Source: Escherichia phage EK99P-1
Sequence record: NC_024783.1
DNA: 44,332 nucleotides
Reading direction: 5' to 3' (one strand)
Position numbers and translations under genes: made by a program. A model generated the notes under the pieces. It made no database searches. It saw nothing but the letters and a program-made list of their open reading frames with translations, and was not told the origin of the DNA. Below are positions 3,545 through 41,778 of the stretch, one piece after another (the stretch's first letter is position 1; each line of letters opens with the position of its first letter).

Positions 3545-4631
3545 TCAATATATGGCGGATCGAATGATTCGCCGACACATCTTCACCCAGCGCCTGAGTA
3601 ATGACCAGGCGCGGCGGGTGCTGGCTATGTGGGAGAAGTTCCGGCCCACGTTACTGGGTAAGCTGACCGAGTTACTTGATGGCAAAAAGTCCATGAACAA
3701 CAAGGCACTTACCACTCTGTTAACGCAACTCGACAAGACCGTCAAAACGGAACTGCGCACCGAGTTTAAGGCGTTGGCTGAAAGCCTTCAGGAGTTCGCC
3801 GACACCGAGGCCGATTATCTCGCCGACACATTAACGGCAGCGATCCAGCCGGTGGTCGCCGTACCTGCGGTCGAGGTGGTTGGCGTAGTGACCGGTGCTC
3901 AGATCGCAGCTACTGCAATGAAAAACCCGTTCCAGGGTAACACCATGATGCAGTGGCCCGATTCACTTTCCGAGTGGACCAGGACGCAGATCGGCAATCA
4001 GGTGCGCGCCGGATTCATCCAGGGCAAGCCGACGATGGAAATTATCGCGGATGTGAGGCGCACGCTAGGCGGTCGTAGTGCGCAAGCAATCTCAAGCGTT
4101 GTTAAGTCCGCGGTCAACCACTATGCGGCGACCGCCCGCGAATTAATGGTAAAAGCTAATGACGATATTCTCGAAGGTCGCCAATGGTTGGCTACATTGG
4201 ACACTCATACTTCCCCAATGTGCCAGCTACGCGATCGCCTGTTTTATCCTGTTGACGTCACTCCCGACACCAAAGGCAAGCGCGGCGGGAAAGTGGTGGC
4301 GGGATCACAATATGGCGCTGGACCGGGCAAGCTGCATTATTGCTGCCGTTCGACGGAGACGTGGAAAGTTAAGGGCATGGAAGATTGGCCCAGTGGTAAG
4401 CGTCCGGCACTGAAGCCTGACGCGGGCCGATTGCTGAGTGAGCAGGTCGACGCGCGGACTGATTTCTTCTCATGGGTGCAGCGCCAGCCGCGCCATATCC
4501 TGGAGGAATTATATGGAGTGCAACGCGCCGACCAGATTATGCGCGGCGTGAAAGTGCCGAAGATGTTTACCGATTCTGGCGAACTGATGACTATTGCACA
4601 GCTTAAAAACCGGGGGCTATGGCGTGATTAA
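3528..4631 (+). CDS. head morphogenesis protein (Mu F-like / SPP1 gp7-like minor head protein)
   Basis: 367 aa, overlaps the portal stop, conserved position after portal. Confidence 0.65.
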   Translation: MAKTINQYMADRMIRRHIFTQRLSNDQARRVLAMWEKFRPTLLGKLTELLDGKKSMNNKALTTLLTQLDKTVKTELRTEFKALAESLQEFADTEADYLADTLTAAIQPVVAVPAVEVVGVVTGAQIAATAMKNPFQGNTMMQWPDSLSEWTRTQIGNQVRAGFIQGKPTMEIIADVRRTLGGRSAQAISSVVKSAVNHYAATARELMVKANDDILEGRQWLATLDTHTSPMCQLRDRLFYPVDVTPDTKGKRGGKVVAGSQYGAGPGKLHYCCRSTETWKVKGMEDWPSGKRPALKPDAGRLLSEQVDARTDFFSWVQRQPRHILEELYGVQRADQIMRGVKVPKMFTDSGELMTIAQLKNRGLWRD

Positions 4632-4953
4632 GTATGCAGCTATTGGACTGGTTATAGGTCTGGCGGTAGGATTCTGGCTAGGTGACTCCTATCGCGCTGG
4701 CGTAGTGGCGGAGGCGGCGCAAGAAGCGCAAGCCAAAGCCCAACGGCAGCAAACTAAAGTTGTTGAGCGATCCGTGCAGGCCGAACAAGCCCGCGACGTA
4801 GAATACCGGACTATCACGAAAGAGGTTGTGAAATATGTTACGCGTCCTAACCGTCCTGATTGCAGTTTTGATGCTGAGCGCGTGCGGATCAAGCAGCGTG
4901 CCGTTGATGCCGCTAACGGAGTCGGCACTGCGACCGCCGTGCAAGTTCGATAA
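4624..4953 (+). CDS. Rz-like inner-membrane spanin (i-spanin)
   Basis: GTG start with GGGGG RBS. N-terminal TM helix (IKYAAIGLVIGLAVGFWLG), then a Q/A/E-rich helical periplasmic region. Partner lipoprotein ORF embedded in the +1 frame. Confidence 0.7.
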   Translation: MIKYAAIGLVIGLAVGFWLGDSYRAGVVAEAAQEAQAKAQRQQTKVVERSVQAEQARDVEYRTITKEVVKYVTRPNRPDCSFDAERVRIKQRAVDAANGVGTATAVQVR

Positions 4954-5065
4954 CCCGTCCGCGGACCCCGACGAAGATTTGATGATTGACGTGAAAAATA
5001 TGGAATGCGGGGCGAAGCTGAGGGCGCAGGTCCTGGAGTTGCAGCAGATAATTCGGGGGCCGTAA
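4835..5065 (+). CDS. Rz1-like outer-membrane lipoprotein spanin (o-spanin)
   Basis: Starts inside Rz in another frame and extends past the Rz stop. Signal peptide plus lipobox MLRVLTVLIAVLMLSAC, short Pro-containing mature part, RBS AGAGG. Confidence 0.7.
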   Translation: MLRVLTVLIAVLMLSACGSSSVPLMPLTESALRPPCKFDNPSADPDEDLMIDVKNMECGAKLRAQVLELQQIIRGP

Positions 5066-6036: not shown

Positions 6037-6078
6037 TTGGTATGCAACCAATATACTGCAACCAATCCACCAATGCAA
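6037..6078 (-). promoter_or_regulatory. sigma70-like promoter for the moron, with downstream palindrome
   Basis: Minus strand: -35 TTGCAT (6073-6078), 17-nt spacer, -10 TATATT (6050-6055), then TTGGT-tgcat-ACCAA (6037-6051). Contains two ATTGGTTGCA boxes. Confidence 0.45.
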
Positions 6079-24965: not shown

Positions 24966-25423
24966 GTGAATTTCGCAACATTTATCGCGTAAATTTTCGG
25001 GACCAAATCACCACACGCCCGACGAATTGCCGCGATGTTCTTCTCGCAATCTTCAATGATGACCAGTTCCGACACGTCCGCATAGCAGACCATTTTGAAC
25101 ACGGCGCACGCCTTAAACTCAGGCGGCGGGGTGTCGTCCAGCATGTGGCGCATAAACAACCGGCCTACCGGGAAGACCTCCAATTGCTCGGCGGTGGTGT
25201 CCCAGCATTCGCGCTGCCGGTTGGTCAGATACGCGATCTCGAAGCCTTGCTCTTTATACATGCGCAGTAGCGGCAGCATATCCATGTTCAGGTCTTCGCG
25301 GACGTGCGCCTTGTGCCACTTCGCCCAGAAGGTGGATTTAGTTTTTATGCCCGGCACCAGGTCGGCGCGCGCATCGCTTGACCCATTAATAACGCCATCC
25401 AGATCACAAATCAGTAATTTCAT
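24953..25423 (-). CDS. HAD-superfamily phosphatase / nucleotidase-like protein
   Basis: 156 aa. N-terminal LICDLDGV matches HAD motif I (DxDG). Confidence 0.6.
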   Translation of the reverse strand: MKLLICDLDGVINGSSDARADLVPGIKTKSTFWAKWHKAHVREDLNMDMLPLLRMYKEQGFEIAYLTNRQRECWDTTAEQLEVFPVGRLFMRHMLDDTPPPEFKACAVFKMVCYADVSELVIIEDCEKNIAAIRRACGDLVPKIYAINVAKFTCNQ

Positions 25424-25653
25424 TTCAATTCCTCAATAAGGGTGTATCGGGCGCTGCGCGCGGTGTAAGAGTTGCACACGAAATGACAACGTCGGGTAAT
25501 GACAAGCCACCCGGTAAGGTCCATACCCAGGAGGTGTTCAGGCCGTGACACGCGACGCACACGATCGCGGCGCGGGTCAATGTTATAGTCTTTTTGCATT
25601 TGGTCTACGACCGCGTGGTCGCGGTCAACGATTAAGATATTCATGTAGCTCAC
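25420..25653 (-). CDS. hypothetical protein
   Basis: 77 aa, overlapping junctions with both neighbours. Confidence 0.4.
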   Translation of the reverse strand: MSYMNILIVDRDHAVVDQMQKDYNIDPRRDRVRRVSRPEHLLGMDLTGWLVITRRCHFVCNSYTARSARYTLIEELK

Positions 25654-26110
25654 TCTCGCTCATTATTTCAATTTGTGCGCTGCCGCTGGGCGGCGCTTCG
25701 TCAAAGATTATCAACTGCTGGCACTTGTTATTGCTCGGCCCGACTTCACCGGTTACAGCGTGTATAAATCGGATACGCCAGTCCAGAAGAATTATCAGGT
25801 TTGCAGTCTTCCGGGCCAGCTTTGCCCACTTCGTCGACGTGTCCTGATTCAGCAGCATGACGGTCCGGCGTCCGTGCGCTGCGCACTTGACCCACGGCAG
25901 CGGATCGGAATACGGCGGGTTGCACCACTTCCACCCTTTCAACTCAGACCAGTCCGCATCGAGCGCGCTGTGCTCTGCCGTGAAGTAACGCGGTAGCAGG
26001 TGGTTGGTGTCGCTTGCCGCCATATCGTAACGGAATCGGTACTTACGGCGCAGCGGTTTAAATAAAGCTGGCGGCGTGCGCCAGCTATCTTTTTGCTCAC
26101 TCTTCTGCAT
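25625..26110 (-). CDS. DNA N6-adenine methyltransferase (small phage Dam type)
   Basis: 161 aa with WRTPPALF and catalytic NPPY motifs. Confidence 0.8.
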   Translation of the reverse strand: MQKSEQKDSWRTPPALFKPLRRKYRFRYDMAASDTNHLLPRYFTAEHSALDADWSELKGWKWCNPPYSDPLPWVKCAAHGRRTVMLLNQDTSTKWAKLARKTANLIILLDWRIRFIHAVTGEVGPSNNKCQQLIIFDEAPPSGSAQIEIMSESELHEYLNR

Positions 26111-26555
26111 GATCTGGATCTATCGCGTACAGGGCAATTTTCTTATTACTGTTTAGAACGCGTTGCACGCGCTTTGATTCCTCGGTGCCGAGTGGTCGGC
26201 AGTCGGAGTAGTAAGACCCGTTCCCTCGCCACGCAACCAGCACCAGGTCTTTCCGGTCAATCTTAGACTGGCGGCCCTTCGGACGCACGTACTCCTCGGC
26301 CCGTTTGCAATGTTCACGCAAACCATCGGCAGTGATGCGGTTTAGTGCAACGCTGGTGGTGTATCCGGTGCGCTGCATAATCCCCATCAATTCGAATAGC
26401 AGTTCGAAGCGCTCCTCTAGCTCCTGGCGCACTTTCTTCTCCCCTTCATATAGCGTCTGGTTGGTGTCCGCCAACGCGTTCGCACGTTCGGCCTGTTCGC
26501 GGGCTTCGAGGCATTGCGCGGCCCAGTAGTTTTTCTCTTCTTGTAAAATTTTCAT
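26097..26555 (-). CDS. hypothetical protein
   Basis: 152 aa, charged coiled-coil-like N-terminus. Confidence 0.45.
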   Translation of the reverse strand: MKILQEEKNYWAAQCLEAREQAERANALADTNQTLYEGEKKVRQELEERFELLFELMGIMQRTGYTTSVALNRITADGLREHCKRAEEYVRPKGRQSKIDRKDLVLVAWRGNGSYYSDCRPLGTEESKRVQRVLNSNKKIALYAIDPDHAEE

Positions 26556-26798: not shown

Positions 26799-26844
26799 CT
26801 CACCGTCTCCAGGTATTAAAAAGGGCGTCCAACCGGACACCCTC

Positions 26845-26878
26845 AATATAATGCAACCAATATAATTACGCAACCAAT
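26845..26878 (-). promoter_or_regulatory. putative sigma70-like promoter with two boxes
   Basis: Minus strand: ATTGGTTGCGT (-35 TTGCGT), 17-nt spacer containing a second ATTGGTTGCA, -10 TATATT. Confidence 0.45.
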
Positions 26879-36466: not shown

Positions 36467-36796
36467 ATGAATATCAACGACGCAATCGAAATGTTAACTA
36501 AGACTGTTTGCAGTGAAACAAGCCGGTCCTGGGCGTATACCGATGCCGTGGGGGCGGTGCTATTTGAAATCGAACGCCTGCGACTCACCGAAAAAGAATT
36601 GCGCGCGAAGCTGGAATTACTCAACGGTACGGCAGCCAGCAAGCTGCAAAAGCACAATGAAGAAATGGAAGAATACAAAAAGCAGGTTATCCGTCTACGT
36701 GAGGAAGGTAAATCCTGGGCTATGATCGCCGAGCTAACCGGAATCAACCAGAGCACTGTGCGCTCCTGGGTACGCAATAATAAAACTTCCAAATAA
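36467..36796 (+). CDS. small HTH DNA-binding protein (candidate early regulator)
   Basis: 109 aa. C-terminal helix-turn-helix GKSWAMIAELTGINQSTVRSWV. First gene after PR. Confidence 0.55.
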   Translation: MNINDAIEMLTKTVCSETSRSWAYTDAVGAVLFEIERLRLTEKELRAKLELLNGTAASKLQKHNEEMEEYKKQVIRLREEGKSWAMIAELTGINQSTVRSWVRNNKTSK

Positions 36797-36806
36797 GGCT
36801 ACGACC

Positions 36807-39071
36807 ATGAGTTTAATTAAATTCGCCGTAACAAGACCCGCTAAAAAAGGCGAAAAAGCCAGGGCGGAAAACCTCCAGATGACCACCGATGAATTTTTCG
36901 AATTTATCAAAGATGCGAAAGAAATCTCATCGGTGCATATCAACAAGACGGAGGATAAAGCCGAGTATGCGCGCCGCAAGCGTAAGGCCGATGGCATCGT
37001 GGCATATACCAGTGACGGACTTCGCCGCAAGACCAGTGCGGTGGACCGCTCGATCCTGTTCTTTGATATTGACCGCACCGACACCCGCACCCTACGCCGC
37101 TGCCGTAAGGCGTTCATTGACGCGGGTCTGGAACACGTATTTCACACCACAACCGGCGACCGTCACCCACTGAAAGGCGGCACGCGTTGCGCCCGTTTCC
37201 TGGTGTTAACTGACAAGCCTGTACCGGCGGAAGACCTGGGCCGCGCCCAGTATGCCTTGTTAGCCCAACTGGGTCTGTCCGATGTGGACTTCGACGATTG
37301 CACGAAAGACACAAACCGCCTTATGTACCTGCCACACCAGCAATCTGTCATTAAATGCCACTACGGCAAGCGCGCCCGCGTCCGTCGTCTGCTCCGCCTG
37401 GCGGACAGGCTGGGAGTTGAGAAAGAGGAAGTGCGCCGCGAACTAACCCAGGGTGATGACGGCATGGCGGACGGTATTCTGGATTGGTGCTTCCAGGCAG
37501 GATTCGAACCGCTGTCGTCCGGTCGTGGTTATGAAGTTCCATGCCCGAACGAACATCTGCATAGTGGCGAAGGGTCCACCGCTATCATGGTTAAGGATGG
37601 CGAGATCCGTTTCAAGTGTATGCACACCGGCAACGAGTGTTGCTCGGAACTGAATAGACACCAGCACCTGGCGCTACGTCTCATCGGGATACCGGACCAC
37701 CTGAACGTCGAGCCGCACAACATGTCCCGTAAGCAAATCGCCGCCATCCTCCCAGGGCTGGACGACGAGGAAGTCGAATCCTTATATGAACATATTGTTG
37801 ATGCGGTTGGCGACGGCGAAGAATACGGCGTGTGCACCGATGCGGATCTGGATAACGAGCCGGTTGCGCTGTTCAGCAAGCACGACCCGATTATCGAGGG
37901 GTTGATTAACTTTAAATCAACTTGGTATATGGCTGGCGAGTCGAACATCGGTAAGTCTTTCTACGTGCTGGGGCAAATGGGTGCGGTTGCCGCGGGGATT
38001 CCGTTCGGTGGCGCGAAGGTAGTCCAGTCTCATTGCTTCTATTTCGATGCGGAAGGTGGCGAAGCCTCTAACCAGCGTAAGGAAGCATTGCAGATCAAAT
38101 ATGAGCACGATCTCGACAAGCTGCACATTATCGACCTGCAAACTCGCGGCTGGGATATCACCAGCAAATCCGGCTTGCGTGAAGTTATCAGCTTTATCAA
38201 CCGCACCGCTAACGGCGAACCGGTTGGCCTGGTGGCATTCGACTCCCTCAACCAGACTGTTGCGTTGCGGTCCGCCGATTCTAAACCGTTCGACGAGAAC
38301 AACGCCAGCGATATGGGCGAAGTGGTCAAAGCGCTGAAGGCCATTGCGGAAAATACAGGCGGCAGTGCGGGCGTCATCCACCACCCGGCGAAAGGTGCAA
38401 ACGGCAGCAGATCTCCCCGTGGGTCCGGCGCGCTGCATGGTGCTGTCGATTCCGCGTTCTTCCTGGAACAGCCGGACGACAATCAGCCTGGTCAATTGAA
38501 CCTGTATCACGAAAAGGCACGTAACGGCATCAAGCAAGCGCCGCGCGGCTTCGTCCTGCTCAAGTGCAAAGTTAAGGTAGATCTCCGCAAGTCCGAGGCG
38601 TTCGAATCGCACCAGTCCACCAGCACCGGGCCTGACTTCGGCGATGTGGTTGCCGGTTGGGACGTCAAGCCGATCGCATCCACGCCACGCGACGAGACTC
38701 TGTATCTCGTACCGGTCGCCCTGGCACCGTTCGCCATCGAACAGGCGAAGGCGGCGGGCAAAGCAGCAGTTAAGGACGAGAATGCCGCAGGACCGCGCAA
38801 CGAAAAAGAGAAAGTGCTTTATGCGGCGCTGGAAAAACTGATGGAAGATAACCCGGACCATACCGGATTCAGTAAATCGGCAATCGTCCGCCAGGCGGGA
38901 TTGGCAAAAGGTGGCACATCGACGAAGGCAATAGACGATATGGTGGAGCGCGGCGTGCTAGGTTTTTATACAGATCCGCATACCGGGGCCATCTATGGGT
39001 CGTCGAATATCGTCATAAAAACGAATATACCCATCACGCTTTCGGCGACCGATGACGACCTTAAAGATTAA
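36807..39071 (+). CDS. DNA primase / replicative ATPase (primase-helicase-like)
   Basis: 754 aa. N-terminal primase-like region and central P-loop GESNIGKS. Large early replication protein. Confidence 0.55.
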   Translation: MSLIKFAVTRPAKKGEKARAENLQMTTDEFFEFIKDAKEISSVHINKTEDKAEYARRKRKADGIVAYTSDGLRRKTSAVDRSILFFDIDRTDTRTLRRCRKAFIDAGLEHVFHTTTGDRHPLKGGTRCARFLVLTDKPVPAEDLGRAQYALLAQLGLSDVDFDDCTKDTNRLMYLPHQQSVIKCHYGKRARVRRLLRLADRLGVEKEEVRRELTQGDDGMADGILDWCFQAGFEPLSSGRGYEVPCPNEHLHSGEGSTAIMVKDGEIRFKCMHTGNECCSELNRHQHLALRLIGIPDHLNVEPHNMSRKQIAAILPGLDDEEVESLYEHIVDAVGDGEEYGVCTDADLDNEPVALFSKHDPIIEGLINFKSTWYMAGESNIGKSFYVLGQMGAVAAGIPFGGAKVVQSHCFYFDAEGGEASNQRKEALQIKYEHDLDKLHIIDLQTRGWDITSKSGLREVISFINRTANGEPVGLVAFDSLNQTVALRSADSKPFDENNASDMGEVVKALKAIAENTGGSAGVIHHPAKGANGSRSPRGSGALHGAVDSAFFLEQPDDNQPGQLNLYHEKARNGIKQAPRGFVLLKCKVKVDLRKSEAFESHQSTSTGPDFGDVVAGWDVKPIASTPRDETLYLVPVALAPFAIEQAKAAGKAAVKDENAAGPRNEKEKVLYAALEKLMEDNPDHTGFSKSAIVRQAGLAKGGTSTKAIDDMVERGVLGFYTDPHTGAIYGSSNIVIKTNIPITLSATDDDLKD

Positions 39072-39165
39072 ATTTTGCGCGCATTGGTTGCCATTTTGGG
39101 TGTTTTTATCTGGTCGTATTGGTTGCCGTGTAGTGTAGATATAATGAATAGTTATGCAATAAAAC

Positions 39166-39334
39166 TGCATAAACCAAACGGGACAGAAAGCGGGACAAAC
39201 AAGGGGCGGGACAAAGCGGGACAGCACCCCCGTCCCGCCCCGGATGGCGCGGCCTGGAGAGGAGCGGGACAGCGGGACAGCACCCCAGTCTTTCAGACTA
39301 GACGGGGGTCAGCGGCCCCCCTCGTCTGAGACTG
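39166..39334 (+). repeat. GCGGGACA iteron plus long hairpin element (copy B)
   Basis: 169 bp directly after the primase gene. Both flanks near-identical to 11788-11956, 34-bp central core divergent, one loop substitution in the hairpin. Confidence 0.8.
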
Positions 39335-39493
39335 CATAAAATCCGGGATTGCAAAATACACGGCAGCATGTTGCGGATTGCGGTCGTCGCTGAACTAGGC
39401 AACCAATGCGAGATGCGGAATGGTGGGTGGAAAATGCAGTTTGCAGTCACAGCAGATAGCGATCAACTTTTTCATGCGCGTGATTAATATTGG

Positions 39494-39535
39494 TTGCATT
39501 CAATCCGGCACCCGGCTATATTGGTTGCACACCAA
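39494..39535 (+). promoter_or_regulatory. sigma70-like promoter with downstream palindrome
   Basis: ATTGGTTGCAT (-35 TTGCAT, 39494-39499), 17-nt spacer, TATATT (39517-39522), then TTGGT-tgcac-ACCAA (39521-39535) and RBS GAGGA. Confidence 0.5.
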
Positions 39536-39550
39536 CATGAGGACTGAACA

Positions 39551-39841
39551 ATGAGAGCGTTAATCTGGAATTACACAATGGCAGTGGCAAAACAGGTCGA
39601 AGCGAGATATACCAACGGCAGAGCACCGTGGGAGCGCCTGGTAGCTCCGACCTGGTTTGCGATCATGGATGCGACCGCGGGCATGGAAGACCCCGAGCCG
39701 TTGCGCGCGGCTATCAGGGCTTACGCGCTTGCATTTGCCCGTGAACGCCTGGCCTATCGCTTCGGTATTGGCGATAAGGCAGTGACAAACGTCGCCCGGA
39801 TTAAAGCCCAGCGCGAACTATTCTCCCAGCTTGCGAAATAA
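39551..39841 (+). CDS. hypothetical protein
   Basis: 96 aa, RBS GAGGA, first gene after the promoter. Confidence 0.5.
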   Translation: MRALIWNYTMAVAKQVEARYTNGRAPWERLVAPTWFAIMDATAGMEDPEPLRAAIRAYALAFARERLAYRFGIGDKAVTNVARIKAQRELFSQLAK

Positions 39842-39850
39842 GGGGCCAAA

Positions 39851-40120
39851 ATGAGCCGTAGGCGCGCTAAACAGCTTTCCTGGCATATTCCCCTGCATTG
39901 CATACGAATATGGGCTAAGAATGCGAATGTGGGCGATTCTGTATTCTGGTGTTATCGCGATGACGTTAAGCCGTTGTCGCAGACTCGCTACCTGCACCAG
40001 TTCGCAGCACAACACGATTTCAGGGTGCGGACCTCCTTGCAACCAATGGGGATTCGTATTACATTACGCCGGAAGCCCGCCGTTGAGCGGGTAGGCAAAC
40101 ACTGGAGACTGAGCAAATGA
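39851..40120 (+). CDS. hypothetical protein
   Basis: 89 aa, basic, RBS AAGGGG. Confidence 0.45.
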   Translation: MSRRRAKQLSWHIPLHCIRIWAKNANVGDSVFWCYRDDVKPLSQTRYLHQFAAQHDFRVRTSLQPMGIRITLRRKPAVERVGKHWRLSK

Positions 40121-40308
40121 TGATTCGACTAAGCGACCAGGTGACGGACTCCGAGCTTGCGGAGTGGATTGCCGAAGGGTGGGTCAGTTATCGTTACGGG
40201 CCGCAGGTATGGGCTATTAAGCGCTGCCGTTGTGATATGCGCCCGCATAACGTGCGCAAGTTTATACGCAAGCATGGGGTATTTCTGGAGGCCGAGAAAT
40301 GTTACTAG
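40117..40308 (+). CDS. hypothetical protein
   Basis: 63 aa, overlapping start (ATGATG). Confidence 0.4.
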   Translation: MMIRLSDQVTDSELAEWIAEGWVSYRYGPQVWAIKRCRCDMRPHNVRKFIRKHGVFLEAEKCY

Positions 40309-40429
40309 GCGACTTCCCGCAGGAGCTTATGGACCTGCATATGTGCGTACTTGAATACGAACAGAACGGCATTGCTACGGTATGCGATGGCGACACGAAG
40401 ACTATCGACGAGATTGAGGAGACTGAACT

Positions 40430-41026
40430 ATGAAATTACTATTCCGCCGTAAAGCTGACGGTCGCATCCTGAAGCCGATCCAGACCCTGGATTCATACGT
40501 CCGCTTACAAAACGCGGCAGGCAATCGGGTATGGTGGGCGAAGAAAGACAAGCTGCAGGAAGACTGCGATATTCTCACACACGATATTGAGCGCGGCGAT
40601 GTGCTGCGTGATATTCGCGACGGTAGTATGTGGATCGTCGAATATGTCGGTCTTCATGGCCTGCGTATGCAAAACCGCAAGGATGGCGTAGCCGGTATGA
40701 CTTACTTCGGCCTTATCAACTACGAACGAGTGGGCCGCAAATACAGCCTTCGGGATCGCCAGCCGCATGAGCGGGCGAGCGCCATAGCGGACGCAGTTAA
40801 CCGCGTAACGCATGACGTGGCGCAGAAGACGCGTGTAGATTTCACCCGCTACGACTCCCACCAGGTGCAAGCGAAGATGGGCCGCGCCGTACACCAAATC
40901 GTCAATCGCTTCGATGCCGTGACGAATGCACAGCGCCATGCGCAGGAATACGGTTTTGGATTCATCCGGGTAGAACGCGACGGCAGCATGAAAGCCATCG
41001 ACCCGCGCTCGGTGATTCTGAGATGA
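40430..41026 (+). CDS. hypothetical protein
   Basis: 198 aa, RBS GAGGAG. Confidence 0.5.
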   Translation: MKLLFRRKADGRILKPIQTLDSYVRLQNAAGNRVWWAKKDKLQEDCDILTHDIERGDVLRDIRDGSMWIVEYVGLHGLRMQNRKDGVAGMTYFGLINYERVGRKYSLRDRQPHERASAIADAVNRVTHDVAQKTRVDFTRYDSHQVQAKMGRAVHQIVNRFDAVTNAQRHAQEYGFGFIRVERDGSMKAIDPRSVILR

Positions 41027-41147
41027 GTGCGACGATCCGAGATATGCTTCAGCATAACCGCTTTGAGATAGGCGGTCGGGTATTTCGCAATTACTTCGTG
41101 GCGCGTGCATGGGCGCGCCATATTGGCAAACCGGAAGGGGCAATTCG

Positions 41148-41435
41148 ATGTTACACGATGTGATTTATTGGTTTGGTTTGATCTGGGGGCTGTGCCTGCT
41201 TACTGCGGTGCTGTTGGTCGTCCTGTTATTCGTAGTATGGCCCGCCGTGGAAGCCGCCAGCATTACCCGCATGACGTTCGAGATCTACAAGCGCCGTGGA
41301 ATCACGGAGCACCCGACCCGGCTTCGGATGTGGTGGCTGTGGTATCGGGATATGATAGGCGGTCGAACATTTGAAGCCGTCCGATCATCCGGGTGGGAGT
41401 GGAAAGGCGTCGGCAAGTGGTCCATTTTCGATTAA
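41148..41435 (+). CDS. small membrane protein
   Basis: 95 aa from the ATG at 41148 (RBS GGAAGGGG). One long TM helix (IYWFGLIWGLCLLTAVLLVVLLFVVW). Confidence 0.45.
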   Translation: MLHDVIYWFGLIWGLCLLTAVLLVVLLFVVWPAVEAASITRMTFEIYKRRGITEHPTRLRMWWLWYRDMIGGRTFEAVRSSGWEWKGVGKWSIFD

Positions 41436-41453
41436 TTATGCAAGCGTGATATA

Positions 41454-41487
41454 GTCCCAGTGAGCTAAAACTTACTGGGACTTTTTT
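41454..41487 (+). terminator. rho-independent terminator abutting the holin start codon
   Basis: GTCCCAGT-12 nt-ACTGGGAC followed by TTTTTT, then the ATG at 41488. Confidence 0.5.
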
Positions 41488-41778
41488 ATGGATAAGCTAA
41501 ACGAGTGGTTATTCGCCATTGCGTGTCTTGCTGGTGGCTTCGTAGGCGCACGCATTCATGGCGAGGCAACGAAAGGGCCGTTGAACTTCGTTTTATATGT
41601 CGTAGTTGGATTCCTGTGCGCCATATTTGGTGCGCCAGCTATCGCCGAGTGGGCTGGTTTATCTGGCGAGCGCACTGTCGCCGGTTTGGGCTTCGTAACT
41701 GCTATCTTCTGGATGCCAATAGCCGCCCGGATCAGGGAGACTATTGAGTCGTTCCGACTTCCGGGGGGCGCAAAATGA
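41488..41778 (+). CDS. holin (putative)
   Basis: 96 aa with about three TM segments, immediately upstream of a second membrane protein and the endolysin. Confidence 0.55.
   Translation: MDKLNEWLFAIACLAGGFVGARIHGEATKGPLNFVLYVVVGFLCAIFGAPAIAEWAGLSGERTVAGLGFVTAIFWMPIAARIRETIESFRLPGGAK

Follow-up and report, generated by a model that had tools for sequence, protein, structure and literature searches.

In the genome of the Escherichia phage EK99P-1, a virulent siphovirus of the genus Dhillonvirus, seven small open reading frames (ORFs) follow each other head to tail on the + strand between positions 39551 and 41435, in front of the holin gene. The window analysed here is this complete genome (NC_024783.1, 44,332 nucleotides). 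Our work shows that the seven ORFs are real, translationally coupled genes, some of them conserved and others variable among related phages, that they are bounded by a terminator, and that they lack known homologues outside families of unknown function. The explanation that we favour, and for which the chances taken as a whole seem about even, is a mosaic single transcription unit in which core genes are combined with optional cargo. A sigma-70-type promoter with its -35 and -10 hexamers embedded in two copies of a phage-wide ATTGGTTGCA box would fire from about position 39529, and a unit of about 1.96 kb would be read through seven translationally coupled small genes until transcription stops at a strong terminator before the holin gene. 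The products would be non-structural proteins without a recognisable catalytic domain that most likely bind other macromolecules.

The seven genes and their boundaries

The cluster consists of the following genes (pI, isoelectric point; SD, Shine-Dalgarno sequence):

39551-39841, + strand: gene A, 96 amino acids, pI 10.2, phrog_9839, SD GAGGA
39851-40120, + strand: gene B, 89 amino acids, net charge +14, pI 11.5, phrog_12533, SD AGGGG
40117-40308, + strand: gene C, 63 amino acids, no PHROG, GGAG 9 nt upstream of the start
40299-40433, + strand: gene D, 44 amino acids, net charge -11, pI 4.05, phrog_15977, SD GGAGG
40430-41026, + strand: gene E, 198 amino acids, net charge +11, phrog_10243, SD GAGGAG
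41023-41163, + strand: gene F, 46 amino acids, basic, phrog_13628, no SD
41148-41435, + strand: gene G, 95 amino acids, phrog_2531, SD GGAAGGGG

A preliminary description of this stretch, made from the sequence alone, had listed these ORFs as a compact operon packed with start-stop overlaps. All the ORFs that it listed are present at the positions it gave, and true ATGA overlaps occur at the B/C, D/E and E/F junctions; C and D share 10 nt, and F and G 16 nt. The picture of overlap does not extend to the first junction, where A and B are separated by a gap of 9 nt. A Shine-Dalgarno sequence lies 5-9 nt upstream of every gene but F, which has only the ATGA coupling to E. The description as a compact operon thus stands: the genes are translationally coupled and lie between a conserved, box-bearing promoter and a strong terminator before the holin gene.

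Several of these genes are so short (C, D and F have 44-63 amino acids) that some or all of the ORFs might be chance frames or mis-annotations, and a neighbouring annotated ORF, at 39420-39554, indeed turned out to be non-coding. The conservation of the cluster makes this extremely unlikely. The ratios of nonsynonymous to synonymous substitution rates (dN/dS), derived from codon alignments of 14 Dhillonvirus genomes, fall between 0.06 and 0.47 (A 0.47, B 0.18, D 0.21, E 0.27, F 0.06, G 0.19), as compared to 0.06 for the neighbouring holin gene in the same genomes. The variable sites in B and F are mostly on third codon positions (for F, 28/6/4 on positions 3/1/2), the frames of B, E, F and G are kept across more than 150 genomes, and all genes but F are preceded by a Shine-Dalgarno sequence. 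For C, the coding test consists of one informative comparison, with the copy in the related locus L015: of 14 nucleotide differences, nine are synonymous, three result in two amino-acid changes, and two are in the last codon. Based on the dN/dS values, the third-position bias in B and F and the mostly synonymous changes in C, we conclude that all seven ORFs are real protein-coding genes. Moreover, A, B, D, E, F and G match PHROG families with E values of 5e-29 to 9e-100, all of them families of unknown function. The start of G is at 41148, giving 95 amino acids, and not at 41109, because there is a good Shine-Dalgarno sequence at 41148, the alignment with the PHROG profile begins at residue 14 of the longer version, and the annotation of phage KarlBarth has the 288-nt form.

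The ORF at 39420-39554 (44 amino acids) was considered as an eighth gene and rejected, as its variable sites are distributed 20/14/11 by codon position and the operon promoter lies inside it. The annotations of SSL-2009a, JLBYU27 and SECphi18 include it, and it has a PHROG of its own, phrog_23498; judged by its sequence, it is probably conserved regulatory DNA that has been mis-annotated as a gene.

The cluster is bounded by two elements:

39489-39529, + strand: predicted promoter with two ATTGGTTGCA boxes, read from the sequence and its conservation
41453-41488, + strand: intrinsic terminator, 12-bp stem, 6-nt loop and T6, matched by the terminator scan

The promoter has the -35 hexamer TTGCAT (39494-39499) and the -10 hexamer TATATT (39517-39522), separated by a spacer of 17 nt. 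Box 1 (39489-39498) supplies the -35 hexamer; box 2 (39520-39529) overlaps the -10 hexamer and the predicted transcription start and forms, together with the bases that follow, the sequence TTGGT-N5-ACCAA. Of the 13 relatives that were aligned, 11 retain the boxes and hexamers, with variation at about 10 of the 17 positions of the spacer; in the remaining two, an ORF has been inserted and both boxes are found further upstream. This fixation of the hexamers and the ATTGGTTGCA boxes around a varying spacer supports the promoter that was read from the sequence, and the earlier proposal of an operator-bearing promoter at the head of the operon is borne out in that respect. Its activity, the start site at about 39529 and an early or middle timing are predictions from the sequence.

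The same cassette, TTGCAT-17-TATATTGGTTGCAyACCAACA, precedes the nmad5 gene on the - strand (6044-6072). The 9-mer ATTGGTTGC is found at 14 sites in the genome, as compared to 0.58 expected:

6044, 6058, 22154, 24955, 26853, 26870, 29827, 36267, 39083, 39118, 39399, 39489, 39520 and 40039: ATTGGTTGC sites

Thirteen of the 14 copies are in intergenic or gene-boundary DNA, and 10 of these 13 are oriented along the genes they precede. In front of the homologue of the immune inhibitor anti-Tmn, of a Lar-like gene and of the cluster studied here, the 3' half of the 9-mer (TTGCnn) can serve as the -35 hexamer, 17 nt from a -10 hexamer; in the nmad5 promoter, the box overlaps the -10 hexamer instead. 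ATTGGTTGC looks like a phage-wide promoter or operator element, and the helix-turn-helix (HTH) protein encoded at 36467-36796 is the obvious candidate for its binding partner.

At the other end, the hairpin of the terminator has a free energy (ΔG) of -24.1 kcal/mol (z = -5.9). It is practically unchanged across 16 genomes, the most divergent of which has one compensatory base pair. The last nucleotide of the terminator (41488) is at the same time the first of the holin start codon. The operon therefore ends where the preliminary description had placed its end, at a strong hairpin followed by T6. A search of Rfam gave this hairpin as the sole match, to NsiR1 and below the threshold. An extended -10 element (TGaTATAGT, 41447-41455), likewise essentially invariant in the 16 genomes, is fused to the hairpin. 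A transcript started at this element would lack the 5' arm of the hairpin, so that one element could both stop transcription from upstream and start transcription of the holin gene. A similar design of -10 element and hairpin is present at about 26815-26851 on the - strand, before the anti-Tmn homologue.

Conserved core and variable slots

A total of 156 phage records, almost exclusively from Dhillonviruses, match the cluster region; among the matches listed, the best have 84-91% DNA identity, and the genes are always annotated as hypothetical and followed by the holin gene. The product of gene E is 100% identical to "hypothetical protein EK99P-1_0054". The presence or absence of A and D was compared in 16 relatives, C was searched in 50,697 phage records and among 5.8 billion proteins, and E exhaustively against 1.84 billion representatives.

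Five of the genes form a conserved set. A is present in all 16 relatives compared, with 53-95% identity; its divergence is concentrated in residues 18-49, and the C-terminal helical hairpin is near-invariant. B was found in 155 phage records, all from Dhillonvirus (73-98% identity across the genus), and F in 150 Dhillonvirus records with 87-100% identity, making it the most constrained member of the cluster. E occurs in 154 phage records, and its alleles vary from 35 to 100% identity and in the length of a linker. G gave 155 full-length matches and, in addition, about 315 records, mostly from Salmonella phages (Jerseyvirus-like), with 40-45% identity; it is the only member of the cluster with relatives outside the genus.

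The distribution of the two remaining genes is different. D was found in 51 of about 155 Dhillonvirus records, a number that is an underestimate given the very short query, and is absent from five of the 16 relatives. C occurs in one of the 50,697 phage records and in two clusters among the 5.8 billion proteins; of the related loci, the first 13 lack it and L015 has it. It is thus a near-orphan, and it sits in a hypervariable slot between B and E. Relatives of EK99P-1 carry other tiny ORFs in four slots:

promoter-A slot: a 59-amino-acid ORF in some relatives
B-E slot: none to three ORFs, including a 50-amino-acid family and a 114-amino-acid paralogue of the N-terminal part of E
E-F slot: tiny ORFs in some relatives
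F-G slot: a 33-amino-acid membrane peptide in some relatives

Taken together, the sequence comparisons describe a block of conserved core plus optional cargo. According to the explanation that we favour, A, B, E, F and G, which are present in essentially every Dhillonvirus and under purifying selection, would probably serve the phage's own infection programme, and the B-E slot would hold optional cargo, which in EK99P-1 consists of the orphan C and the acidic D, with three further slots of this kind in relatives. Such slot cargo would be of the kind expected for strain-specific interactions with the host or its defences. We also considered that the variable face of A, or E, might be under positive selection; this was rejected, since dN/dS is below 1 everywhere.

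The optional ORFs in the slots have mostly 50-60 amino acids and an alternating hydrophobic, β-strand-like pattern, and some carry a 'GD.V' motif, which suggests a family of small β-barrel modules that may duplicate and shuffle within this locus. In the related loci they are located as follows:

L005, 2852-3004: optional slot ORF
L015, 2767-2919: optional slot ORF
L025, 2767-2931 and 3479-3649: optional slot ORFs
L010, 2256-2435: optional slot ORF
L013, 1268-1612: optional slot ORF

The 33-amino-acid peptide of the F-G slot is predicted to span the membrane once; it begins with MLYVFAVVCGGSLAALVLLASVI, and the ribosome-binding site in front of it is the one that serves G in EK99P-1:

L004, 3740-3841: F-G peptide
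L007, 3665-3766: F-G peptide
L009, 3695-3796: F-G peptide
SM_S22 (L030), 41564-41665: F-G peptide

Properties and possible roles of the products

The preliminary description had assigned no motif to any of these products, and our searches agree. Pfam and NCBIfam gave nothing significant for the cluster proteins, PADLOC, the library of which is not designed for anti-defence proteins, gave no match at E ≤ 1, and sequence profile searches of the PDB with A, B, C, E, F and G gave nothing significant. The two AlphaFold models on which the structural analysis is based, a confident one for A and one for E (one of the two is poor, with a predicted local distance difference test score, pLDDT, of 63.7), have generic folds. 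No ORF matches a structural or housekeeping family of phages; specifically, there was no structural PHROG or Pfam match that would point to a role in the virion, and none of the homologues in phage EE09 (CDS44-50) was among the 24 proteins detected in its lysates, nor were they seen among the virion proteins or in the proteomes of infected cells. A search of the literature found no proteome or escaper-mutant report touching the cluster genes.

A is modelled as a generic four-helix bundle. The idea of a Cro-like HTH autoregulator, raised by its C-terminal sequence, was rejected since the model is confident and there is no HTH match. B (net charge +14) and the basic F would be candidate nucleic-acid binders; an assignment of B to the AbrB/MazE-like DNA binders was dismissed with an hhalign probability of 0.3%, obtained with a small alignment of reference sequences, and no Pfam match. 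C was considered as a paralogue of the HTH protein at 36467-36796; it has no similarity to it and was not found to belong to the HTH class.

E has a β-rich N-terminal part (residues ~1-105) and a C-terminal part consisting of a helix and a β-hairpin (~140-198), joined by the linker of variable length. In the model, the N-terminal domains bear a weak SH3/Tudor-like resemblance to the barrels of CarD, the C-terminal domain (CTD) of PcrA/UvrD, RapA and Spt5. The exhaustive profile search with E gave 24 matches, none of them informative: they comprise its own family, fragments with only the N- or C-terminal part, and two repeat artefacts in large proteins. In P0129, a metagenomic protein of 157 amino acids, an E-like N-terminal domain (~1-109) is joined directly to the C-terminal domain of G, implying a natural deletion of the C-terminal part of E, of F, and of the membrane helix of G. 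A and E would both be fast-diverging binding modules.

G consists of an N-terminal transmembrane helix and a Trp/Arg-rich domain of 60 amino acids, with nine tryptophans, and is predicted to be tethered to the inner membrane. It has a single transmembrane domain (TMD), with a Kyte-Doolittle maximum of 3.0 at residues 12-30. Over residues 15-95, which cover the membrane helix and the soluble domain, it has 41% identity to a 'putative membrane protein' of the Jerseyvirus S528. As to the class of holins and antiholins, G has one TMD, the terminator lies between G and two holin genes, and the Jerseyvirus homologue is not adjacent to a holin gene. A role of G as an i-spanin was rejected as well: the spanins of EK99P-1 have been placed at 4623-4953 and 4834-5065 of NC_024783 (Kongari et al. 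2018), and the published region at 4623-5065 matches the ORF at 4594-4953 of the window. Moreover, no ORF with a lipobox overlaps G, and the terminator follows directly.

Several points weigh against the explanation that we favour. The consensus promoter scan did not call the operon promoter, because the -35 hexamer matches TTGACA at only three of six positions. Our literature search found no transcriptome for any Dhillonvirus, and promoter use and timing are what we infer. Read-through from the upstream primase operon into the cluster is possible; the hairpin at 39291-39331 (ΔG -23.5 kcal/mol) has no U-run. The variable segment of A has a dN/dS of 0.65, which speaks for relaxed rather than positive selection, so that there is no direct signature of an arms race. 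The lack of a catalytic domain is negative evidence drawn from the sequences and from two models, one of them poor (pLDDT 63.7). Similarly, a mode of action by binding, as well as any role directed against the host, is something that we infer.

The preliminary description had pointed to host takeover and anti-defence as typical roles of such genes, and the whole cluster might be an island of this kind in which most products inhibit immunity or host functions. The genes are small and without homologues, their promoter is of the same ATTGGTTGC-box class as those of the anti-Tmn homologue, the Lar-like gene and nmad5, the slots are hypervariable, and the alleles of E are strongly diverged. D combines 44 amino acids with a net charge of -11, and such an acidic composition is seen in DNA-mimic inhibitors. 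However, known anti-defence genes usually have a patchy distribution, whereas purifying selection acts on A, B, E, F and G, which occur throughout the genus, and F is as constrained as the holin. The strong conservation of B, F and G thus argues against anti-defence for the cluster as a whole. Moreover, the two characterised defence-related small genes of Dhillonviruses belong to a leftward operon on the other strand, at about 25.4-26.6 kb, the escaper mutations of SECphi4 and SECphi18 in the parts of the reports available to us are in the DNA polymerase, SSB, a 56-amino-acid neighbour of the polymerase and the portal rather than in the cluster, and PADLOC gave no match. We therefore consider such a role of the entire cluster unlikely; for the variable members, anti-defence or host takeover is plausible.

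The two characterised genes are anti-Tmn, an immune inhibitor (SM_S22 ORF35, PMC11846954), and Ksap1 of SECphi18, which triggers KpAvs2 (PMC11564622). In EK99P-1, the homologue of anti-Tmn (SM_S22 CDS35) is at 26100-26555 on the - strand (78.6% identity), and a homologue of SM_S22 CDS33 is at 25423-25608, also on the - strand (64.5% identity). CDS33 lies between the genes for polynucleotide kinase and a methyltransferase, where Ksap1 is described to lie. This mapping rejects the cluster as the home of anti-Tmn, Ksap1 or the 56-amino-acid escaper gene of SECphi4.

A narrower version of the inhibitor idea concerns D, C, A and E, which have no sequence relatives and no informative fold relatives among characterised proteins. 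That one or more of them founds a new family of phage proteins inhibiting a host defence system or a host factor is a tentative suggestion, doubtful as it stands. In its specific form, the tandem Tudor/KOW-like barrels of E would dock on the host RNA polymerase.

Alternatively, B, F, G and perhaps E might form a module that controls the phage cycle, i. e. the switch from early to late genes or the timing of lysis. The position of these genes immediately upstream of the lysis cassette and its promoter mirrors the lambdoid arrangement Q-PR'-tR'-S. The invariant extended -10 element that is fused to the terminator, the proximity of the membrane protein G to two holin genes, the resemblance of the N-terminal domains of E to barrels that bind RNA polymerase, and the highly basic and conserved B fit this idea as well. 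However, there was no match to Pfam CarD/KOW families and no Q-like match, the terminator separates G from the holin gene, the homologue of G in Jerseyviruses is found close to the terminase, some 1.9 kb downstream of the genes for holin and lysin, and the phage already has a clear HTH regulator (36467-36796). A control module is thus rather unlikely.

Another possibility is that the cluster provides accessory replication or recombination factors for the upstream helicase-primase module. The helicase-primase gene (36807-39071) is its next neighbour upstream, with a conserved non-coding block of iteron-like character (39072-39420) in between, and A, B, E and F are basic. However, the searches linked none of the products to a replication protein, a separate promoter is predicted for the cluster, and the other replication genes of SM_S22 are on the opposite strand at 27-35 kb, which makes this role very unlikely. 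Both the control of late genes or lysis and the accessory role in replication are weaker than the mosaic transcription unit of core genes and optional cargo.

The highly conserved non-coding block itself, which immediately follows the helicase-primase gene, includes another box-bearing promoter, with boxes at 39083 and 39118 and a TATAAT at 39140, a small hairpin the loop of which differs between relatives, about six GGGACA-type repeats, and the long hairpin at 39291-39331. It is annotated as a coding sequence in KarlBarth (bas17_0053), SM_S22 (CDS55) and SECphi18 (gp06); this is unlikely to be correct because of frame-shifting indels between relatives. The block may be a replication origin or encode a small RNA.

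Comparison with known gene clusters and significance

The clusters of other Dhillonviruses (HK578, SSL-2009a orf55-60, KarlBarth bas17_0054-0059, SECphi18 gp08-gp12, SM_S22 CDS58-64) have the same genes in the same order, the same boxes, and the terminator before the holin gene, with a DNA identity of 84-91% over most of the region. EK99P-1 differs from them by the rare gene C, for which Shigella phage 1b and a few metagenomic contigs are the only other sources, and by having no additional ORF in the promoter-A and F-G slots, which are occupied in some relatives. The Jerseyviruses, as represented by Salmonella phage vB_SenS_S528, have a cluster of small genes that likewise consists of overlapping ORFs of 40-100 amino acids of unknown function and includes the homologue of G. 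In contrast to the situation in EK99P-1, G is the only gene in common, and the S528 cluster lies downstream of the lysis genes, before the small terminase gene.

Anti-Tmn and Ksap1 are similar to the cluster products in being small, genus-restricted and without informative homologues, and the anti-Tmn homologue is likewise located behind a ATTGGTTGC-box promoter. However, they are different proteins at a different locus, on the - strand, and no member of the cluster is related to them. Dense, coupled small ORFs that are mosaic between relatives are also characteristic of the early accessory blocks of lytic phages and of the nin region of lambda. Here, in contrast, five of the seven genes are strictly conserved in the genus, and a terminator fused to the next promoter sets the block off from the lysis genes. 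The cluster is thus ordinary phage "dark matter", the genes of which are already listed as hypothetical in over 150 genomes, and does not represent a new type of system.

Among the coliphages used in therapy and as models, Dhillonviruses are common; they include five phages of the BASEL collection (Bas14-18), the SECphi phages, and EK99P-1 itself, for which tests against enterotoxigenic E. coli K99 have been made. One small ORFan of this genus, anti-Tmn, is already known to inhibit immunity, and another, Ksap1, to trigger it. The operon described here is the largest remaining uncharacterised gene block that is conserved across the genus, and since it is cleanly delimited, it is a convenient target for deletion and expression screens.

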